From NCBI RefSeq assembly GCF_054482595.1, contig NZ_CM137008.1: 64,000 nt of DNA. One strand, 5' to 3'. The notes below the pieces were generated by a model, which saw nothing but the letters and a program-made list of their open reading frames with translations, ran no database searches and was not told the DNA's origin. The translations under genes were made by a program, and so were the position numbers. This document shows positions 1,841-15,255 of this stretch, piece after piece. The stretch's first letter is position 1; each line of letters begins with the position of its first letter.

Positions 1841-3991
1841 ATGGATACGAAAAAACTATTCAAGCACATACCCTGGGTGATTCTCGGAATCATCGGTGCA
1901 TTCTGCCTCGCGGTAGTTGCATTACGTCGGGGGGAGCACGTCAGTGCCCTGTGGATCGTGGTCGCCTCTGTGTCGGTGTATCTGGTGGCGTATCGCTACT
2001 ACAGTCTGTACATCGCCCAGAAGGTGATGAAACTCGACCCTACGCGCGCGACGCCTGCGGTTATTAACAACGACGGTCTGAACTACGTTCCGACCAACCG
2101 TTACGTGTTGTTTGGTCACCACTTCGCCGCTATCGCCGGTGCCGGTCCGCTGGTCGGTCCGGTTCTCGCCGCACAGATGGGCTACCTGCCTGGCACGCTG
2201 TGGCTGCTGGCGGGGGTAGTACTGGCCGGTGCGGTTCAGGACTTTATGGTGCTGTTTATCTCCTCTCGCCGTAACGGCGCATCTCTCGGTGAGATGATCA
2301 AAGAAGAGATGGGACCAGTACCGGGGACTATCGCGCTGTTTGGCTGTTTCTTAATCATGATCATCATCCTCGCCGTTCTGGCGCTGATTGTGGTTAAAGC
2401 CCTGGCCGAAAGTCCGTGGGGTGTCTTCACCGTTTGCTCAACCGTACCGATTGCGCTGTTTATGGGTATCTACATGCGCTTTATCCGTCCGGGGCGTGTG
2501 GGTGAAGTCTCTGTTATTGGTATCGTGCTGCTGGTTGCCTCTATCTACTTCGGTGGCGTGATTGCTCACGATCCGTACTGGGGTCCGGCACTGACCTTTA
2601 AAGACACCACCATTACCTTCGCGCTGATTGGCTATGCGTTTGTTTCCGCACTGCTGCCGGTGTGGCTGATCCTCGCACCGCGCGACTATCTGGCAACCTT
2701 CCTGAAAATCGGCGTTATCGTCGGCCTGGCGCTGGGTATCGTGGTGCTGAACCCGGAACTGAAAATGCCAGCGATGACCCAGTACATTGACGGTACTGGC
2801 CCGCTGTGGAAAGGCGCTCTGTTCCCGTTCCTGTTCATCACCATCGCCTGTGGTGCGGTATCTGGCTTCCACGCGCTGATCTCTTCCGGTACGACGCCGA
2901 AACTGCTGGCTAACGAAACCGACGCGCGTTTCATTGGCTACGGCGCAATGCTGATGGAGTCCTTCGTGGCGATTATGGCGCTGGTTGCTGCGTCCATCAT
3001 CGAACCGGGTCTTTACTTCGCGATGAACACCCCACCTGCTGGCCTTGGCATCACCATGCCTAACCTGCATGAAATGGGTGGCGAGAATGCGCCGATCATC
3101 ATGGCGCAGCTGAAAGACGTTACCGCACACGCGGCGGCGACCGTCAGCTCCTGGGGCTTCGTGATTTCGCCAGAGCAGATCCTGCAAACCGCGAAAGACA
3201 TTGGAGAGCCTTCTGTCCTGAACCGTGCAGGTGGTGCGCCGACGCTGGCGGTAGGTATCGCTCATGTGTTCCACAAAGTGCTGCCGATGGCTGACATGGG
3301 CTTCTGGTATCACTTCGGTATTCTGTTCGAAGCCCTGTTCATCCTGACCGCGCTGGATGCTGGTACCCGTTCTGGCCGCTTTATGCTGCAAGACCTGCTG
3401 GGTAACTTCATCCCGTTCCTGAAAAAAACCGACTCTCTGGTTGCCGGTATCATCGGTACTGCGGGCTGTGTGGGTCTGTGGGGCTACCTGCTGTATCAGG
3501 GCGTGGTCGATCCGCTGGGCGGCGTTAAGAGCTTGTGGCCGCTGTTCGGTATCTCCAACCAGATGCTGGCAGCCGTGGCGCTGGTACTGGGCACCGTTGT
3601 GCTGATTAAGATGAAGCGCACCCAATACATCTGGGTAACTGTTGTTCCGGCCGTATGGCTGCTTATCTGCACCACCTGGGCGCTGGGCCTGAAACTGTTC
3701 AGCACCAACCCGCAGATGGAAGGCTTCTTCTACATGGCAAGCCAGTACAAAGAGAAGATTGCTAACGGTACTGACCTGACGGCGCAGCAGATTGCCAACA
3801 TGAACCACATCGTTGTGAACAACTACACCAACGCGGGCCTGAGTATTCTGTTCCTGATTGTGGTGTACAGCATCATCTTCTACGGTTTCAAAACCTGGCT
3901 TGCGGTGCGTAACAGCGACAAACGTACTGACAAAGAAACACCGTACGTTCCAATCCCGGAAGGCGGCGTGAAGATCTCTTCGCACCACTAA
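1841..3991 (+). CDS. btsT: Pyruvate/H+ symporter BtsT (CstA family; formerly YjiY), 716 aa
   Basis: ORF-track ORF 1826-3991 gives a CstA-family polytopic membrane protein. The start is taken at the ATG at 1841 (MDTKKLFKHIPWVILG...), which matches K-12 length; the ATG at 1826 lacks an SD. Confidence 0.9.
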   Translation: MDTKKLFKHIPWVILGIIGAFCLAVVALRRGEHVSALWIVVASVSVYLVAYRYYSLYIAQKVMKLDPTRATPAVINNDGLNYVPTNRYVLFGHHFAAIAGAGPLVGPVLAAQMGYLPGTLWLLAGVVLAGAVQDFMVLFISSRRNGASLGEMIKEEMGPVPGTIALFGCFLIMIIILAVLALIVVKALAESPWGVFTVCSTVPIALFMGIYMRFIRPGRVGEVSVIGIVLLVASIYFGGVIAHDPYWGPALTFKDTTITFALIGYAFVSALLPVWLILAPRDYLATFLKIGVIVGLALGIVVLNPELKMPAMTQYIDGTGPLWKGALFPFLFITIACGAVSGFHALISSGTTPKLLANETDARFIGYGAMLMESFVAIMALVAASIIEPGLYFAMNTPPAGLGITMPNLHEMGGENAPIIMAQLKDVTAHAAATVSSWGFVISPEQILQTAKDIGEPSVLNRAGGAPTLAVGIAHVFHKVLPMADMGFWYHFGILFEALFILTALDAGTRSGRFMLQDLLGNFIPFLKKTDSLVAGIIGTAGCVGLWGYLLYQGVVDPLGGVKSLWPLFGISNQMLAAVALVLGTVVLIKMKRTQYIWVTVVPAVWLLICTTWALGLKLFSTNPQMEGFFYMASQYKEKIANGTDLTAQQIANMNHIVVNNYTNAGLSILFLIVVYSIIFYGFKTWLAVRNSDKRTDKETPYVPIPEGGVKISSHH

Positions 3992-5534: not shown

Positions 5535-7385
5535 ATGGCAACAATAATCCCAACAATCAGTAGCTGCAACGATAAAATTACTGCCGGAGAGAAAAGGCTG
5601 GCAAGAATTCTGGAAAGAGGACTAGGCGAAGAGTGCTGCTGTTGGTATGACATTCCCACGGGTGATAAGCATCTTCACCCAGATTTTATGATACTTTCGC
5701 CAGAAAAAGGCATTATTTTTCTCGAGGTAAAAGATTGGTTTATTACAAAAATAAAAAAAGCCAACAAGTCTAATGTTTTGTATGAGACACAAAATGGCAT
5801 TCAATCTTTAAAGAATCCGATAGAACAAGTTAGGCGATATGCTTTCGAAGCTGTAAACCAGTTAAAAAAAGACCCCCTATTGTGCCAACAGGAAGATCGT
5901 TACAATGGCAATCTTCTTTTCCCCTATGGATATGGCGTCTACTTTAGTAATATTACACGAGAAGCATTAAATAATAAATTTACTCAAGAAGAGCTGCTCG
6001 GGATCTTCCCATCAGATCTTATCATCTGCAAAGACGAACTAAATGAATTCATGTCAAAAGGGGATGTTTCATCCAAAATACATTCGTTGATTAAATATGA
6101 CTTCAAATGTCATGCTACACAAGAACAGTTGAACAGGATTAGATGGCACTTATACCCCGATGTCAGAATAGAAAGGGAAAAGAGAAGTAAAAACTGTGAT
6201 GAATTTAGTGTCGATGCACCAACCATCATTTCTATCCTGGATACTCAACAGGAACAACTTGCCAGAAGTATGAGAGACGGCCACCGAATAATTCATGGTG
6301 TTGCAGGTTCAGGTAAGACATTGATCCTCTATCATCGCTGTCAGGAATTAGCGAAAAAAAATGACAGCGAAAAGCCAATACTTGTCATTTGCTACAATAT
6401 TACTTTAGCCAAAAAACTTCGGTCGATGTTCATCAATCATCCCTTTGAAGAGAAAATAAAGGTTAATAATTTTCATGCTTGGTGTTTCCAACAAATTAAA
6501 AAAAACAAGATCACCATTCCAGAAGGGGATAATATTTTTGAAAATATGGAGCAAGCGTTGACTGATGGTTTCAACACAGGAAAAATAAAACCAGAACAAT
6601 ACAGCGCTGTATTAATTGATGAAGGACATGATTTTAAGCCCGAATGGTTAAAAATCCTGGCAAAAATGACTGACTCTCAGGACGAGAATTTGCTATTTCT
6701 TTATGATGATGCTCAGTCAATTTATCAAAAAAAGAAAGCATTAGACTTTACACTGTCCAGCGTGGATATTAAAGCGACAGGACGCACAACTATTCTTAAT
6801 ATAAATTATAGAAACACACAACAAATTCTACACTTTGCCAGTTGCATTGCATTTAATTATCTTAATAGCCATATCGATAGTTCTTTAACCTATCATAAAC
6901 CTGCTGCGGGAGGAATGAATGGCGATTATCCCAAGCTTGAACATTTCGACACACAGGACGAAGAAATAGCAAGAGCAGTCAAATGGATTACAGAGCAAAA
7001 TGAACAAGGGATTCCGTGGTCTGAAATTGCTATACTTAGTCCTTCAACTCACATCCTTTCTAACTCTCTAAGTTCTGTACTTGAATCGAAAAATATCCCC
7101 TTTAATCTTATTGTAAGCTCTGCAGATAAAAAGTCCTGGACGCCAGAACAAGAGCGTATTTCTGTTATGCCATTACCCAGCAGCAAAGGACTTGAGTTTC
7201 ACTCAGTTGTCATTATTGATGCAGCGAGAACACGGGATAATAGTGATGATTTGAGTGAGGATATAAAGAGACTCTATGTAGGTTTTACCCGAGCACGTTG
7301 CAATCTCTTGGTAACCTTGCACGGTGAAGGTGCGTTAAATGAGCATCTACTAAGAACCTATAAGCAAAGCCCACAATATATGTAA
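5535..7385 (+). CDS. NERD-domain / SF1 (UvrD-like) helicase fusion protein, 616 aa; candidate single-gene nuclease-helicase defence protein
   Basis: N-terminal NERD-like motif (GEKRLARILERGL ... HPDFMILSPEKGIIFLEVKDW). Helicase motifs: Walker A HGVAGSGKT, motif II VLIDEGHDF, KGLEFHSVVI, and C-terminal LYVGFTRAR. The gene is strongly AT-rich. Confidence 0.7.
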   Translation: MATIIPTISSCNDKITAGEKRLARILERGLGEECCCWYDIPTGDKHLHPDFMILSPEKGIIFLEVKDWFITKIKKANKSNVLYETQNGIQSLKNPIEQVRRYAFEAVNQLKKDPLLCQQEDRYNGNLLFPYGYGVYFSNITREALNNKFTQEELLGIFPSDLIICKDELNEFMSKGDVSSKIHSLIKYDFKCHATQEQLNRIRWHLYPDVRIEREKRSKNCDEFSVDAPTIISILDTQQEQLARSMRDGHRIIHGVAGSGKTLILYHRCQELAKKNDSEKPILVICYNITLAKKLRSMFINHPFEEKIKVNNFHAWCFQQIKKNKITIPEGDNIFENMEQALTDGFNTGKIKPEQYSAVLIDEGHDFKPEWLKILAKMTDSQDENLLFLYDDAQSIYQKKKALDFTLSSVDIKATGRTTILNINYRNTQQILHFASCIAFNYLNSHIDSSLTYHKPAAGGMNGDYPKLEHFDTQDEEIARAVKWITEQNEQGIPWSEIAILSPSTHILSNSLSSVLESKNIPFNLIVSSADKKSWTPEQERISVMPLPSSKGLEFHSVVIIDAARTRDNSDDLSEDIKRLYVGFTRARCNLLVTLHGEGALNEHLLRTYKQSPQYM

Positions 7386-7403
7386 AAATGATAAATTATC
7401 TCC

Positions 7404-7437
7404 ATAACGCCCGGTAACGCTGTACCGGGCGTTATGA
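7404..7437 (+). terminator. Perfect 14-bp inverted repeat hairpin downstream of the NERD-helicase gene
   Basis: cataacgcccggta-acgctg-taccgggcgttatg read directly; no strong T-run follows. Confidence 0.4.
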
Positions 7438-7626
7438 ATGCATATCTAAGATATTAGTCACGCATGATAGCCGCCACCAAAAACACCATCATCTCCCTCG
7501 CCTCTTTGCGGTGATAAAAGCGTACCATTTTGCTGTTAAATTCCAGCGTTTTAGCCGCTGGAATTAACAAGATCAAACTTCCGGCAACGAAGATTCAGTT
7601 ATTACAAATAATTACTGGAAAAAGAG

Positions 7627-7824
7627 ATGAAAAGCGTGGTTGACAACACATCGAAATATCCTGACTGGAGTAAACGCGATGATATTAAAGCGAAACTGAA
7701 AGTTGAACTTATTCTGCTTCTACACAAGCATAAGTTCCCGCCAGTAGCGAATGATGATGTTTATATGGGTGTGCTGGCACAGGTAGAGAATTTTAAAGAA
7801 CATCATATGAGTGCTTTAAATTAA
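7627..7824 (+). pseudogene. 65-aa ORF, possible C-terminal remnant of a displaced restriction-system gene (hypothesis only)
   Basis: Short ORF upstream of symE in the position occupied by hsd genes in K-12. The motif KRDDIKAKLKVELILLLHKHKFPPV resembles my recollection of type I HsdR C-terminal tails. Unverified. Confidence 0.25.
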
Positions 7825-7943
7825 TCATGAAGGCTGGATACACTTTGTTATCCGGCCATTGTGAATTAATGTTAATTTTTCTTCCAAATCTTTCCAATAA
7901 CGCTTTTATTATTTTCTATTTTTAGCTGGACTTTCCCTGTATT

Positions 7944-7963
7944 TACTGATGATATATCCAGAT
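7944..7963 (+). promoter_or_regulatory. LexA (SOS) box-like CTG-N10-CAG element upstream of symE
   Basis: TACTGATGATATATCCAGAT read directly about 78 bp upstream of the symE ATG; symE is a known SOS-induced gene. Confidence 0.5.
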
Positions 7964-7984
7964 ATTTAGCGCGGTGCGGATGTG

Positions 7985-8065
7985 CGCCAACACACCCGCA
8001 CCGCTCATCACAATCACTATTTTCAAGGAATAGCAGTTATGACTGACACGCATTCTATTGCACAA
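7985..8065 (-). ncRNA. symR: Expected position of SymR antisense sRNA (type I antitoxin) overlapping the symE 5' end; approximate coordinates
   Basis: Placed from the known symE/SymR arrangement, not from detected promoter or terminator signals. A 9-bp inverted repeat GCGGTGCGG/CCGCACCGC lies at 7971-8004. Confidence 0.3.
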
Positions 8066-8380
8066 CCGTTCGAAGCAGAAGTCTCCCCGGCAAATAACCG
8101 TCAATTAACCGTGAGTTATGCGAGCCGCTACCCGGATTGCAGCCGTATTCCCGCCATCACCCTGAAAGGTCAGTGGCTGGAAGCCGCCGGTTTTGCCACC
8201 GGCACAGCGGTAGATGTCAAAGTGATGGAAGGCTGTATTGTCCTCACAGCCCAACCACCCGCCGCCGAAGAGAGCGAACTGATGCAGTCGCTGCGCCAGG
8301 TGTGCAAGCTGTCGGCGCGTAAACAAAAGCAGATACAGGAATTTATTGGGGTGATTGCGGGTAAACAAAAAGTTGCCTGA
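8039..8380 (+). CDS. symE: SOS-induced toxin SymE (type I toxin-antitoxin), 113 aa
   Basis: Internal ATG at 8039 of ORF 7982-8380 gives [33 protein letters not shown]..., matching SymE. Confidence 0.85.
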
Positions 8381-8388
8381 TACATTGA

Positions 8389-8419
8389 CCCGGTAGCACC
8401 AGTGCTACCGGGTATTATT
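8389..8419 (+). terminator. Hairpin plus T-rich tail between convergent symE and the GmrSD-like gene
   Basis: cccggtagca-ccag-tgctaccggg followed by tattatt, read directly. Confidence 0.5.
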
Positions 8420-8426
8420 CGCCGCG

Positions 8427-10520
8427 TTATACCAACGCGCTCTCCATCTGTTTTTCAAATGCCTGACGAATTAATCCCATAATGTAAGGAAGTTGTGCGA
8501 GGTCGCTGAAACAAATTTCCACATCACCATTGCCCCATCGCCCAACATTTGTCACATCTTTGGCAATACCTTTCGGATCGACCAGTTCATGAAACTGCAT
8601 ATTAAGCGACAATCGCAGTCGGCTTTTTTGCGGCACAACATCAACAAAATTCGTTTCAGCTTTAAACGCAATATATAGCTTCAATACTTCCTGCGTGATC
8701 CCTGCGTCCAGGCGCATAACTTCATCGCGAAGATGATCGAATAACACCCGGCTATGCGAACCATCAGCAAGAAAAGGATAATCACTCAGGCTGTAACTGG
8801 TTTTGTTTTCAGGCTGCCCCCGATAAACAGCTAAAACCTCTTCAGAAAGAGAAGGCGCTTGCCAGACCTGAATCGCGAGATCGGCCAGACGATCGGCTCG
8901 GGCGTGAATGGCGGCTTCATCCCATTTTTCGCACTGTCCAAGACCGATATTCAAATAGAGCGGGCTATGCTTAAAGCCGTCTTCAATATCGCGTTTTTCC
9001 GCGAAAGGTCTGTCACTGTAGCGGGAGTTATAGCGCGTTAATGTGAGATTCCCCAACGTATGCAACAGTTCTTTATGAATGCGTTGCCAGTCACTTCCCA
9101 GCTCTTCACGCCATTTAGCCGACAAATTTTCGTTCTGCGGCATAATATGCTCAATCGTAAACTCTTCCACGCGCTCTCTGCGTTTATCGTTTTCCAGTCG
9201 TCGTAACCAGTAGCTGCGACTACGGAAGTTATAGAGATCGCGAACTTTTAATTCCCGTTTAAATTCATCATCGTTGGGGAAACGACGATATGAAGGTAGA
9301 TTCAAAAAATGTACCTGAATACTTTCCAGATAATTTTCTTTATTAATAACTTTATAAAAAGTGGCAAATGTCTTGTTCAAAGAATTTGTCGGAATTGCAC
9401 ATACTGCACGGCGGAAAACATAAGATTCAATTAAACGAATTATGCTCAGAAAATCTTCGTGAGACAAAACGCCATTTTTATAGTCATGATAAAGCGCCAG
9501 TAAGAAAGGATACGCCACATCGACCTTTAACTCGCGCAAATCCTGAAAAGCCGTAGCAAGCGATTTGTCACTTTCTTTTCCCAATGCCATTGCACAGTAA
9601 TACTCCGCGTAGATATGAATATCTTCAACCAGCCGATCTACGCCTTTTTCAGCAACACTCTGGCTGCGGGCATGGAGTTTAAATGCCTCATAGACTTCAT
9701 CTGTCCGAGGGATCTCCCCCGTTTTTACCGTCAGATAATGACGCATAAAACTGTCAAAATATTCGCTGTAACCTTGCTGACCAAAGGCGACTTCCATTGG
9801 ACGCCAGTGATCTTCATACAATCGGGTTTGATGCTCTGGTTCGAGGCCCATCAGAATAAAATTGCGCACCAGATCGGCCTGACTTAACGCCTTACCGGTG
9901 GAGTTCATACTTTCAAAAATCAGTTGCGGATTATCCTGACCACGATTAAGCGCCACATCGACAATTAATAACTTTGCTAACCCACGACATAAGGGGATCA
10001 AGTCATCACCGAGTTTGGCAATTTGTTCATCAAAGAAAGTAAAGTTTTCCATTATTCGATGGGAATAGTTTTCTGGCATTGGTCTTTGTTTTATTAACGC
10101 CAGTAAACTGTCTTTATCAGTCTCGGTCAGCAGTAATTTAAAACCTTTCTCGCCGGACTCATAAGGATTGAGCAAATAATAATTACGCAATTTCATTGCC
10201 GAAAAGCCATCAAAAACTTCGTCTTCGCCAAGATGGCGCGATAAAGCCTCAATCAGCAACATTGCGGTCGTCAGCCGCTGCTGACCATCAATGACCAGCA
10301 ACGGAGAAATACCAGAAACCTGATACAATCCCTGCTCTATATAAACAACCGAACCGATAAAATGCGCTGATATATCGTCACGCTTTCCTGCACGAATGAT
10401 GTCGTCCCAAAGTTGCCGACATTGTTGTTCTGTCCATGAATAAGTCCGTTGATAAATGGGAATAACAAACTGCTGCGAACGTTTTAAAAAATCGAGTAAG
10501 CGAGCTTCTGTAGCTTTCAT
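8427..10520 (-). CDS. DUF262 + DUF1524 (GmrSD-family) putative Type IV modification-dependent restriction endonuclease, 697 aa
   Basis: N-terminal DUF262/ParB-like motifs IPIYQRTYSW and VIDGQQRLTT. C-terminal His-Me finger/DUF1524-like motifs FTIEHIMPQ, GNLTL and YNS. Confidence 0.7.
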   Translation of the reverse strand: MKATEARLLDFLKRSQQFVIPIYQRTYSWTEQQCRQLWDDIIRAGKRDDISAHFIGSVVYIEQGLYQVSGISPLLVIDGQQRLTTAMLLIEALSRHLGEDEVFDGFSAMKLRNYYLLNPYESGEKGFKLLLTETDKDSLLALIKQRPMPENYSHRIMENFTFFDEQIAKLGDDLIPLCRGLAKLLIVDVALNRGQDNPQLIFESMNSTGKALSQADLVRNFILMGLEPEHQTRLYEDHWRPMEVAFGQQGYSEYFDSFMRHYLTVKTGEIPRTDEVYEAFKLHARSQSVAEKGVDRLVEDIHIYAEYYCAMALGKESDKSLATAFQDLRELKVDVAYPFLLALYHDYKNGVLSHEDFLSIIRLIESYVFRRAVCAIPTNSLNKTFATFYKVINKENYLESIQVHFLNLPSYRRFPNDDEFKRELKVRDLYNFRSRSYWLRRLENDKRRERVEEFTIEHIMPQNENLSAKWREELGSDWQRIHKELLHTLGNLTLTRYNSRYSDRPFAEKRDIEDGFKHSPLYLNIGLGQCEKWDEAAIHARADRLADLAIQVWQAPSLSEEVLAVYRGQPENKTSYSLSDYPFLADGSHSRVLFDHLRDEVMRLDAGITQEVLKLYIAFKAETNFVDVVPQKSRLRLSLNMQFHELVDPKGIAKDVTNVGRWGNGDVEICFSDLAQLPYIMGLIRQAFEKQMESALV

Positions 10521-10957: not shown

Positions 10958-12370
10958 ATGACGCGTTATCAACATCTGGCAACTCTGCTTGCCGAGCGGA
11001 TTGAGCAAGGGCTGTATCGTCACGGGGAGAAATTGCCGTCGGTGCGCAGCTTAAGTCAGGAGCACGGCGTCAGCATCAGCACCGTGCAGCAGGCGTATCA
11101 GACGCTGGAGACGATGAAGCTCATCACTCCGCAGCCGCGTTCGGGGTATTTTGTCGCACAACGTAAAGCCCAGCCGCCAGTGCCGCCGATGACGCGTCCG
11201 GTGCAGCGCCCGGTGGAAATTACCCAGTGGGATCAGGTACTGGATATGCTGGAGGCGCATAGCGACAGTTCCATTGTTCCGTTAAGCAAAAGCACGCCGG
11301 ATGTCGAAACGCCCAGCCTGAAACCGCTGTGGCGTGAGCTAAGCCGGGTGGTGCAGCATAATCTGCAAACCGTTCTCGGTTATGACTTGTTAGCCGGTCA
11401 GCGGGTATTGCGAGAGCAGATTGCCCGCCTGATGCTCGACAGCGGCTCGGTGGTCACCGCCGATGACATCATCATCACCAGCGGCTGCCATAACTCGATG
11501 TCGCTGGCGTTAATGGCGGTGTGTAAACCGGGCGATATTGTCGCGGTCGAATCTCCCTGTTATTACGGTTCGATGCAGATGCTGCGCGGCATGGGCGTGA
11601 AAGTGATTGAAATCCCAACCGATCCAGAAACTGGCATCAGCGTTGAAGCGCTGGAACTGGCGCTGGAACAGTGGCCGATTAAAGGCATCATTCTGGTGCC
11701 AAACTGTAATAATCCGCTGGGATTTATTATGCCGGACGCGCGCAAACGGGCCGTTCTCTCTCTCGCTCAGCGTCATGATATTGTGATTTTTGAAGATGAT
11801 GTCTACGGCGAACTGGCAACGGAGTATCCGCGCCCGCGGACCATTCATTCCTGGGATATCGACGGGCGAGTGCTGTTGTGCAGCTCGTTCAGTAAAAGTA
11901 TTGCTCCAGGCCTGCGCGTGGGTTGGGTCGCACCGGGGCGTTATCACGATAAACTGCTGCATATGAAATACGCCATCAGCAGCTTTAATGTGCCGTCCAC
12001 GCAAATGGCGGCGGCAACGTTTGTGCTGGAAGGTCACTATCATCGCCATATCCGGCGGATGCGGCAGATCTATCAGCGCAATTTGGCGCTTTATACCTGC
12101 TGGATACGGGAATATTTTCCCTGCGAAATCTGTATTACGCGCCCGAAAGGCGGATTTTTACTGTGGATAGAATTGCCTGAACAGGTCGATATGGTCTGCG
12201 TCGCGCGGCAGCTGTACCGCATGAAAATCCAGGTGGCGGCAGGCTCGATTTTCTCGGCTTCCGGCAAATACCGTAATTGTCTGCGCATCAACTGCGCTTT
12301 GCCGCTCAGCGAAACCTATCGCGAAGCACTGAAGCAAATTGGCGAGGCCGTGTATCGGGCAATAGAATAA
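10958..12370 (+). CDS. yjiR: MocR/GntR-family transcriptional regulator with PLP-dependent aminotransferase-like domain, 470 aa
   Basis: N-terminal GntR-type winged HTH (LPSVRSLSQEHGVSISTVQQAYQTLE) followed by an aminotransferase class I/II-like domain. Confidence 0.85.
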   Translation: MTRYQHLATLLAERIEQGLYRHGEKLPSVRSLSQEHGVSISTVQQAYQTLETMKLITPQPRSGYFVAQRKAQPPVPPMTRPVQRPVEITQWDQVLDMLEAHSDSSIVPLSKSTPDVETPSLKPLWRELSRVVQHNLQTVLGYDLLAGQRVLREQIARLMLDSGSVVTADDIIITSGCHNSMSLALMAVCKPGDIVAVESPCYYGSMQMLRGMGVKVIEIPTDPETGISVEALELALEQWPIKGIILVPNCNNPLGFIMPDARKRAVLSLAQRHDIVIFEDDVYGELATEYPRPRTIHSWDIDGRVLLCSSFSKSIAPGLRVGWVAPGRYHDKLLHMKYAISSFNVPSTQMAAATFVLEGHYHRHIRRMRQIYQRNLALYTCWIREYFPCEICITRPKGGFLLWIELPEQVDMVCVARQLYRMKIQVAAGSIFSASGKYRNCLRINCALPLSETYREALKQIGEAVYRAIE

Positions 12371-12487
12371 TTTCGAATTAGTGGCGAGGCCCCTGATTTC
12401 CTCTCACGAATCGCCTGTGACTCGTTTTATCTTTGCAGGGGCATCGCCACGTTCCAGCATGGCTTAGGCAAAGTGTGCTTTGTTCAT

Positions 12488-12518
12488 ACCGGATGCGGCG
12501 TGAACGCCTTATCCGGCT
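12488..12518. repeat. REP element (ccggatgcggcgtgaacgccttatccgg)
   Basis: Imperfect palindrome of the canonical E. coli REP type; a near-identical copy is at 36431-36465. Confidence 0.6.
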
Positions 12519-12554
12519 TACAAATCGCGCAAATTCAATAGATTGCAGAGGTAA

Positions 12555-12585
12555 TGTAGGTCTGATAAGCGTAGCACATCAGGCA
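12555..12585. repeat. REP element (tgtaggtctgataagcgtagcacatcaggca), second member of a BIME-like pair
   Basis: REP-type palindrome adjacent to the previous one between convergent yjiR and rpnD. Confidence 0.5.
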
Positions 12586-12611
12586 GCTTTGCGTTTGTCA
12601 TCAGTCTCTGA

Positions 12612-13556
12612 TTAGTACTCGATCCATGGATCGCGCTTGCTTTCAGGCAAGGGTTGCTCTAATGCCTGCATTTGCTCTGCCGAAAGTCCAGTATATCGTT
12701 GTATCCATTCAGGATCCGCACCGTTCTGCAAAAGCAATCTAAGGAGGCGTTGTTCCCCTTCTTCTTTCCCCTTTTCCATCCCTAACAGCCATCCATCATT
12801 ATGAATTCGCTCTGCAATCGTCATTATTCGCTCCCTGTGTTGTGGCATTCGACGGGTAAGTTCACTGATAAACTCATTAAAACGCGCTTCATCGCCAGTC
12901 AGTAAAATGTAATTTAACAGCGCGGTTATCTGGCTGTCATTAGCGCACCCTGTAACCAGTAATATTACCAGTTGATCAATAAGCCCCATTAGATCGCGCT
13001 GGCGAATATGCTTTTGGATCAACTCCAACAGGGCGACTCTGCGGTGCTGCACAATCTCGTCGTCTGGCACGACAGTGACATCCACCAGCGGGAACGCTGC
13101 AGTATAAACTTTCCGTGCAGTAGTCGGGTCGGCAAATTCGTCCAGCCAGCACAGGGACCAGGGATAAGGACTACGGCTACCGTGATAAAACAGCATCGGG
13201 ATGACCAGCGGTAGCAACCGGCGTTTATCATGCTCTATATGGCGCTGCATCACTGCCATGGTATAGCGCATCAGGCGAAAGGCCATATGAATATCCTCAC
13301 GGCTCTGATGTTCAATCACCACATAGATATAGCCATCGCCTTCCCGGGTCTTTACCGACCACAGAATATCGGAGTGTAGCGCCCGCAATTTTTCATCGAC
13401 AAAGCTGGCGGATTCCAGTTTTAAGCTGTCGAGATCGCACAGTTCACGTAAATCTTTGGGTAAGTGGATCTCCATAAAATCCCGCGCGGTGTCAGGGTGC
13501 ATGAGAAAAGATTTAAATAATGCGTCATGCGGCGTGCTGGTCGTGAAGTTTGTCAT
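12612..13556 (-). CDS. rpnD: Rpn-family recombination-promoting nuclease (YhgA-like PD-(D/E)XK), 314 aa, apparently intact
   Basis: [36 protein letters not shown]... is typical of the Rpn/YhgA family; single uninterrupted ORF. Confidence 0.75.
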
Positions 13557-14022
13557 GGCGATCCGTCACCTGTTGATAAGATGGCCCGACTTTAGCGACT
13601 AACAAAACCATTCTCACCCGGCAATTTCCCGTTCCCCGAGGCGCTTTCCAGGCTATTTTTGTTCGTCTGCAAACGATACATTTTTCCGGAAACAGGCTCG
13701 CGTTTTACATTTCCTGTACCCGGCAGATATTCCCCTTTCCACCGCGCTCTTTTGATTAACCGCAAATTTTAATTACACTTAAGGTGTATATTTTCTATGC
13801 AACCCATCAATTCAAGAGGTGTAATGTACTGATGACTATTTGTAATCGTTATACATTCTGACCCGAAGTCAGAAGGTATTTCTCTGTCTGTGTGTTCACA
13901 GGCAGTGTGGTTGATTACATGAAATTCAGTACATTTGTCCTTCTCGCCTGCCTTTCGTCATTACCGACGGTATTGAATTTCGTTTTCCCCGTTGGGGTTC
14001 TCCGGACAAGGAGTTGTTTGTT

Positions 14023-15255
14023 ATGCCACGTTTTTTTGCCCGCCATGCCGCCACGCTGTTTTTCCCGATGGCGTTGATTTTGTATGACTTTGCCGCCTAT
14101 CTTTCGACGGACCTGATCCAGCCAGGGATCATTAATGTGGTCCGTGATTTTAATGCCGATGTCAGTCTGGCCCCGGCTGCCGTCAGTCTCTATCTCGCTG
14201 GAGGCATGGCATTGCAGTGGCTGCTGGGGCCGCTTTCCGACAGGATTGGCCGCAGGCCAGTGCTGATTACCGGGGCGCTCATTTTTACCCTTGCCTGCGC
14301 CGCGACAATGTTCACAACGTCTATGACACAGTTTCTTATCGCGCGTGCAATTCAGGGCACCAGTATCTGTTTTATTGCTACCGTTGGTTATGTCACGGTG
14401 CAGGAGGCGTTCGGACAGACAAAAGGGATCAAGTTGATGGCGATTATCACCTCCATCGTACTGATTGCGCCGATTATTGGCCCGCTTTCCGGCGCAGCTC
14501 TGATGCACTTTGTGCACTGGAAAGTCCTTTTTGCCATCATTGCGGTTATGGGTTTTATCTCATTTGTTGGCTTACTGCTGGCGATGCCAGAGACGGTGAA
14601 GCGCGGCGCGGTTCCATTTAGCGCCAAAAGCGTCTTGCGCGATTTTCGTAATGTCTTTTGCAATCGGCTGTTCCTCTTTGGCGCAGCAACCATCTCTTTA
14701 AGCTATATCCCAATGATGAGTTGGGTGGCTGTCTCGCCGGTGATCCTGATTGACGCAGGCGGCTTAACGACCTCGCAGTTCGCCTGGACACAGGTTCCGG
14801 TGTTCGGCGCGGTGATTGTCGCGAATGCCATCGTGGCGCGTTTCGTTAAAGATCCGACCGAACCGCGCTTTATCTGGCGTGCCGTACCCATTCAACTGGT
14901 TGGCCTCGCGCTGTTGATTATCGGCAATCTGCTGTCACCGCACGTCTGGCTGTGGTCGGTGCTGGGCACCAGTTTGTATGCTTTCGGGATTGGTTTGATC
15001 TTCCCGACCTTATTCCGCTTTACGCTTTTTTCCAATAACTTACCGAAAGGGACCGTCTCCGCATCGCTGAATATGGTGATCCTGATGGTGATGTCTGTCT
15101 CGGTCGAAATCGGCCGCTGGCTGTGGTTTAACGGCGGTCGCTTGCCGTTTCATCTGTTAGCCGTCGTGGCGGGCGTTATCGTCGTTTTCACCCTGGCAGG
15201 ATTGCTCAATCGCGTGCGCCAACATCAGGCTGCCGAGCTGGCGGAGGAGCGGTGA
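14023..15255 (+). CDS. mdtM: MFS multidrug efflux transporter MdtM, 410 aa
   Basis: 12-TM MFS-like protein. Start is taken at the ATG at 14023, preceded by GGAG; the ORF track used an upstream TTG. Confidence 0.9.

Follow-up and report, generated by a model that had tools for sequence, protein, structure and literature searches.

An intact orthologue of Escherichia coli rpnD with a conserved internal start and a four-unit repeat tract

The minus-strand open reading frame (ORF) at 12612..13556 of a 64,000-nucleotide stretch of DNA (contig NZ_CM137008.1 of RefSeq assembly GCF_054482595.1; this whole stretch is called the window below) is an intact orthologue of Escherichia coli rpnD (yjiP/yjiQ) at its usual site. 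Intactness is the majority state of this gene in E. coli, and K-12 is one of several exceptions. Taken as a whole, the best explanation, which we consider probable, is that the window gene is a working nuclease/antitoxin pair of the rpnD type, with two products and a specificity set by repeats. Intact rpnD, the nonsense lesion of K-12, the antitoxin encoded within the gene and the repeat variation have all been published already, and the exact window protein, which already has a RefSeq accession, is of little importance on its own. Coordinates of the features discussed here are collected in Table 1.

Results

The reading frame opens with ATG and runs for 314 codons with zero internal stops (ORF listing of the window), in exact agreement in coordinates and length with a preliminary description of this DNA that had noted an uninterrupted 314-aa ORF here and had left its strand, minus, unstated. 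The Rpn-family label given there is borne out by two profiles that score above their curated cutoffs: PF04754 (Transposase_31/YhgA-like; E=1.6e-86, 289.6 bits vs a cutoff of 21) matches residues 8-210, with profile positions 1-202 of 203 covered by the window protein, and TIGR01784 ('Rpn family recombination-promoting nuclease/putative transposase') scores 171.3 bits vs a cutoff of 52.1. The gene DNA is 100% identical in E. coli XH990, a strain isolated from urine in China that matches the window at 99.97% identity across 28.8 kb (blastn) and in which RefSeq annotates an intact CDS, WP_021557499.1. Because of the two profile matches and this intact CDS, the ORF is no chance ORF.

The window carries, in order, yjiS, yjiR (10958-12370, +), the rpn gene, mdtM (about 14014-15255, +) and yjiN, and the order yjiS-yjiR-rpn-mdtM-yjiN is common to the window, XH990, K-12 MG1655 and MC4100. 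Since its neighbours match those of K-12 rpnD, the window gene is assigned as the rpnD orthologue; a published gene table (PMC9504249) treats yjiP, yjiQ and rpnD as names of one gene, for which it lists two fragment entries in UniProt. Neither a second rpn gene nor a free-standing RpnS copy was found within the window by tblastn. RpnA (YhgA) of K-12 shares 56% amino acid identity with the window protein end to end (E=4e-129) but is a paralogue encoded at another locus, beside feoABC and bioH. Because the window protein scores 387.9 bits against the NCBIfam RpnA equivalog NF007361, below the cutoff of 583, it is a paralogue of RpnA and not RpnA itself.

Table 1. Coordinates of the rpnD-type gene, its internal features and neighbouring elements in the window
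Feature	Position	Strand	Basis
rpnD-type Rpn gene, full-length product RpnL (314 aa), intact	12612..13556	-	ORF list, Pfam, TIGR01784, synteny
N-terminal nuclease (Transposase_31 / PD-(D/E)XK-type) domain, residues 8-210	12927..13535	-	Pfam limits
Asp63 codon (catalytic in RpnA)	13368..13370	-	residue check, conservation
Glu82-His83-Gln84 codons, ExQ variant of (D/E)xK motif	13305..13313	-	residue check, conservation
Codon 104, CAG here / TAG in K-12, site of K-12 lesion	13245..13247	-	pairwise alignment, codon read
Sigma-70-like hexamers ATGACA-18-TAAATT with TG, candidate internal promoter	12911..12940	-	consensus scan
Shine-Dalgarno-like AGGGAG, 6 nt upstream of internal ATG	12831..12836	-	sequence read
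RpnS ORF, 70 aa, Met245 to shared stop; predicted antitoxin/oligomerisation domain	12612..12824	-	RpnA alignment
Four-residue repeat tract, residues 255-270, 4 Gxxx units	12747..12794	-	allele comparison
REP/BIME-like repeats, convergent yjiR/rpn 3' intergenic region	12433..12610	.	repeated-match count
NERD+UvrD helicase, 616 aa	5535-7385	+	PADLOC PDLC01087, E=4.7e-141
SymE toxin	7982-8380	+	defence-type neighbour
GmrSD_N+GmrSD_C+DUF5655 protein, 697 aa	8427-10520	-	PADLOC Orf5, E=2e-223

Catalytic and regulatory residues stand at the same numbering in the window protein and RpnA, with D11, D63, E82, Q84, R94 and D165 all present. Each of these six matters in RpnA, where mutagenesis has shown that D11A, D63A, E82A and Q84K lose all phenotypes, that D165A is hyperactive, and that RpnA-D63A is dead both in vivo and in vitro (PMC5350276). 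A search of 1.84 billion cluster representatives returned 8,744 relatives at E<=1e-3, from which 65 full-length relatives with 28-61% identity were aligned to score conservation. D63 is conserved in 63/65, E82 in 62/65, H83 in 61/65 and Q84 in 57/65 of these homologues; the set D63, E82, Q84, D11 and R94 spans 57-63 of the 65, and D11, D63, E82, H83, Met245 and Gly255 are all at least 90% conserved. The PDDE motif is present as VVPDDEI with D165, the D being found in 57/65 homologues. An AF2 model (pLDDT 90.8) predicts an alpha/beta core (helix 21-31, strands 40-47, 63-70 and 73-84, helix 91-109 and strand 117-126, pLDDT >90), one 40-residue helix that spans the repeats, and a pair of short helices. 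Across 16 E. coli alleles, variable columns number 9/100 and 13/110 in the nuclease domain and 31/70 in the C-terminal tail. By extrapolation from RpnA, RpnB, RpnC, RpnP2 and repaired K-12 RpnD, the window allele is predicted to have nuclease activity, and its RpnL (314 aa) would be a DNA endonuclease of the PD-(D/E)XK type that needs divalent cations, cuts with low sequence specificity and is toxic when unchecked. RpnA and repaired K-12 RpnD show the traits of a Mg2+-dependent, Ca2+-stimulated DNA endonuclease, together with toxicity and SOS induction (PMC5350276, PMC4498929).

Within the gene, an internal ATG (Met245) at 12824-12822, spaced 6 nt from an AGGGAG, opens a 70-aa RpnS ORF in the frame of the long protein and with the same stop. 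The internal start is present in 16/16 E. coli alleles and AGGGAG in 15/16, with AGAGAG in the O157-type allele. Met245 aligns with RpnA Met244 and is Met in 61/65 diverse homologues; RpnA Met244 is the experimentally proven start of RpnA-S (PMC10400941). The C-terminal segments of window RpnS and RpnA-S (PDB 7th0) are homologous: BLASTP aligns the RpnS segment with that of RpnA-S at E=2e-8, the sole large gap lying in the repeat tract, and a database-wide search gives a weak match to the RpnA-S crystal chain 7th0 (E=0.3). Neither the 70-aa segment nor the 62-aa K-12 segment matched DUF4351 (PF14261), the domain of free-standing RpnS genes, even at E<=10. The model places helices at 238-277 (which holds Met245 and the repeats), 282-289 and 293-300 with pLDDT of about 90-96, and these predicted C-terminal helices agree with the published three-helix RpnS.

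A promoter-like site at 12940-12911 is a weak match to the consensus (9/12 positions, with an extended TG) and lies ~87 nt upstream of the internal start, in a region whose count of such sites is not above that of shuffles. It is identical in all 16 alleles, but it is inside coding sequence. Internal transcription start sites have been detected for all K-12 rpn genes by dRNA-seq (PMC10400941). The consensus scan found no promoter-like site on the minus strand upstream of rpnD.

By analogy with the characterised paralogues, two proteins, RpnL and RpnS, would most likely be made from one reading frame, RpnS being translated from the internal Shine-Dalgarno sequence and Met245 and probably produced in excess from an internal transcript and start. 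RpnS would share the C-terminal helical domain of RpnL, bind RpnL there and block the nuclease, and the pair may have a part in defence against phage or may, by breaking DNA, favour illegitimate recombination. We infer RpnS translation, antitoxin action and an anti-phage or recombination-promoting role from RpnA, RpnB, RpnC, RpnP2 and repaired K-12 RpnD. Plasmid RpnP2 L/S (Zhong et al., 2023), likened here by description, belongs to the same family and has the same gene-within-gene logic, but differs in being plasmid-borne and in being the only Rpn shown to protect against phage (PMC10400941).

The repeat tract defines an allelic series with 2 units (306 aa, including K-12), 3 units (O157-type), 4 units (314 aa) and 5 units (318 aa). 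Variation in four-residue repeats is found in all E. coli Rpn proteins, with the repeats starting 8-20 residues after the RpnS Met (PMC10400941); those of the window start at RpnS residue 11. In 53/65 homologues the spacing from Met to TGLS takes one of the values that run from 36 to 60 in steps of 4; it is 44 in the window. Tandem Repeats Finder detected no DNA-level tandem array in the tract. RpnA differs from the window protein in missing 12 residues exactly at this tract. The number of repeats in the long helix (four here) may set which RpnS pairs with which RpnL.

The K-12 counterpart had been given in the preliminary description as the pseudogene fragments yjiP and yjiQ, which holds: MG1655 rpnD (b4584), formerly named yjiP and yjiQ, is annotated as a pseudogene, and the MC4100 copy is flagged 'internal stop' by PGAP. 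The alignment with K-12 yjiP/yjiQ proposed in that description places the lesion at Gln104->amber, with codon 104 reading CAG (Gln) in the window vs an in-frame TAG in K-12, and the K-12 copy is accordingly not intact. No other stop was found in K-12 rpnD in this pairwise alignment, and a frameshift as the K-12 lesion is ruled out by it, the lesion being one in-frame nonsense codon. The further suggestion that this strain may retain a functional nuclease is plausible, given the mutagenesis-defined RpnA residues kept in the sequence and the activity of the repaired K-12 allele.

K-12 rpnD lies at the same position between yjiR and mdtM and shares 92.6% nucleotide identity with the window across the gene, with 96.3% amino acid identity in residues 1-244 and the same internal Shine-Dalgarno sequence and ATG, but its C-terminal 70 residues are only 77% identical to those of the window, and it has 2 Gxxx units and 306 codons vs 4 units and 314 in the window. 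Nucleotide identity is 83% in nt 733-945 vs 93-97% upstream, and the two alleles differ in length by an in-frame 24-bp gap that falls in the repeat tract, towards the 3' end. Downstream of its amber codon, the K-12 pseudogene still has the Shine-Dalgarno sequence and ATG of the internal start, followed by an open RpnS frame of 62 aa (extracted locus 8999-9919). Judged from the sequence, the Gln104->amber lesion removes RpnL and leaves the RpnS ORF open; since the ORF is open past the amber codon, K-12 may still be able to produce just the antitoxin half. An internal initiation site is stated for each of the five K-12 rpn genes, and tagged small proteins are reported for rpnA, B, C and E only (PMC10400941).

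According to Kingston et al. (2015), most E. coli encode a complete YjiP with K-12 having a premature stop, and the same authors synthesised a repaired gene, yjiPc (PMC4498929). The over-expressed repaired YjiP is toxic and SOS-inducing and raises RecA-independent recombination (PMC4498929, PMC5350276). In Kingston 2017, MG1655 DNA was the PCR template, yet 'WT RpnD' was active despite the amber codon (PMC5350276). A search for suppressor genotypes that could explain this activity found none, and the likely explanation is the synthesised repaired yjiPc of the 2015 paper.

The TAG allele was counted with a 41-mer in which every megablast seed was forced to include the T of TAG, and was found in 338/5,426 complete E. 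coli genomes; every one among the matches listed is K-12-like, being a K-12 substrain, a laboratory derivative or a genome of K-12 size. The corresponding CAG-allele 41-mer, which recovered 603 genomes only, gives no census, local SNPs breaking its 28-base seeds, and loci were therefore sampled evenly down a ranking instead. The rpnD 3' segment is present in 4,228/5,426 genomes (about 78%), rpnD is absent from roughly a fifth to a quarter, and the whole yjiR-rpn-mdtM-yjiN block is found in 3,495. Many genomes lack both yjiR and rpn, and a further group has rpn adjoining yjiN without mdtM. In 21 genomes with rpn, drawn at regular intervals from the ranking of window-segment matches, the gene is annotated intact in 15/21 and disrupted in 6/21, with five different lesions across the six disrupted genomes. 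Among individual locus variants, strains 5132 and L1PEag1 carry an intact 306-aa rpn gene directly beside yjiN with mdtM missing, and KMi006 has yjiA, BrnT/BrnA, an IS1 remnant and mdtM in that order and lacks rpn, yjiR and the entire variable region (extracted locus 2475-3946).

In strain 9000 a 25-nt stretch of the gene, the internal-start segment (ATGACGATTGCAGAGCGAATTCATA), is duplicated in tandem at gene nt 733-782. The duplication throws the long product out of frame after 260 aa, and an ATG in the second copy starts a 66-aa RpnS ORF that is intact and has 3 repeat units. The junction of this duplication occurs in 279 genomes including O157:H7 EDL933, and the duplication appears fixed in the O157:H7 lineage. 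An identical 125-bp MITE, with terminal inverted repeats TTCAAGTTGCA, sits at a TA site at rpnD nt 450 in FG92-1 and MB52; it resembles ERIC/IRU elements, and no copy occurs within the window. In BL21 (BL21-Gold), an IS1A copy directly follows codon 255 of rpnD (…HNDG), where the repeat tract begins (extracted locus 747-2266), and the rest of rpnD, yjiR and more are removed. GPEC1352 rpnD has a 1-nt deletion, which may be an assembly error. The toxin-killing lesions in K-12 and O157:H7 keep the RpnS ORF open, and among the sampled lesions the BL21 IS1A junction is the only one to destroy the RpnS ORF as well. As the internal start has 77% of the gene upstream of it, this sparing of RpnS is statistically indistinguishable from chance with five independent lesions.

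At the sequence level, rpnD alleles have a mosaic structure. Identity between strain 9000 and the window is 100% in nt 1-250 vs 78% in nt 733-945, and that between GPEC1352 and the window is 100% in nt 733-945 vs 94-97% upstream. The same MITE is found with different C-terminal alleles (4 vs 2 units in FG92-1 and MB52, respectively), which implies that recombination within the gene followed the insertion. The RpnS-coding 213 nt of the window is found at >=99% identity in only 238 genomes.

[quoted passage not shown] In the window, the variable slot of this region (5535-10520) holds three defence-type genes (Table 1) instead of the K-12 hsd/mcr/mrr set (hsdRMS/mcrBC/mrr). The GmrSD ORF is unbroken in the window, and PGAP splits the XH990 copy into a CDS and a DUF262 pseudogene. 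PADLOC returned no Rpn match, PADLOC-DB v2.0.0 being without an Rpn model. The segment 12433-12610 has a median of 17 matching places per E. coli genome, and Rfam matches to REP-derived sRNA models in the same stretch are below threshold (ES036/CssrF at 12521-12563, +, 33.4 bits vs a GA of 37.6; naRNA4 at 12482-12518, -).

Discussion

The ORF could be intact but silent or inactive, a neutral remnant decaying like the inactive paralogue RpnE. The locus is dispensable, as the variety of lesions in the six disrupted genomes and its outright absence in many strains attest; the window allele carries three private residues (T99, L114 and V150) seen in none of the 15 other alleles, and the lack of a detected minus-strand promoter-like site upstream fits a silent gene as well. 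These three residues, however, are conservative and at positions that are also variable between paralogues, and all mutationally defined RpnA residues are kept. Variable columns amount to ~10% in the nuclease domain vs 44% in the C-terminal tail, and this low variation suggests that the domain is under constraint. K-12 RpnD in its repaired form, 96% identical to the window protein in the nuclease domain, is among the most toxic paralogues (PMC5350276), and a silent or decaying gene seems to us decidedly unlikely. A mobile-element transposase, the reading invited by the Pfam name 'Transposase_31' and by a match to NF007418 ('ISNCY family transposase', 395.6 bits), is extremely improbable and was rejected: the NF007418 score is below the curated cutoff of 583, the gene is single-copy in the window and fixed in position between yjiR and mdtM across thousands of genomes, and rpn genes are described as being without terminal inverted repeats, target-site duplications or defined ends (PMC10400941).

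A main role in RecA-independent recombination and horizontal exchange at the ICR border, rather than in toxin-antitoxin function or phage defence, is the reading that follows Kingston and Raleigh. It accords with the place of rpnD as a 'framework' gene on the proximal border (PMC4498929), with the mosaic alleles and the sharing of one MITE between different C-terminal alleles, and with a rise of about 5-fold in RecA-independent recombination on overexpression of the repaired YjiP (PMC4498929, PMC5350276). That rise could be a by-product of DNA breaks, though, and induction of YjiPc left the distribution of ICR-specific replacements unchanged (PMC4498929); nor does recombination alone explain a gene-within-gene antitoxin with repeat-matched specificity (PMC10400941). 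As the main role we hold recombination to be on the unlikely side, although the two readings are not mutually exclusive, and the nuclease/antitoxin pair of the rpnD type is preferred here.

Building on that pair, one may speculate that E. coli keeps rpnD in at least four 'specificity classes' defined by repeat number (2, 3, 4 or 5 Gxxx units), which recombine in modular fashion at a fixed site bordering the restriction/defence island, that several lineages have specifically lost the toxin and kept an expressible antitoxin, and that the 4-unit allele of the window is one active class; we put this forward as an unlikely proposal. If it is true, an orphan RpnS could neutralise an incoming matching RpnL or serve another role.

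K-12 is an atypical genome at the rpnD locus, and so is O157:H7. Wild strains like the source strain probably carry a working RpnD toxin/antitoxin pair beside the restriction island, and tests of repeat-number specificity could draw on the rpnD locus as a natural allelic series.
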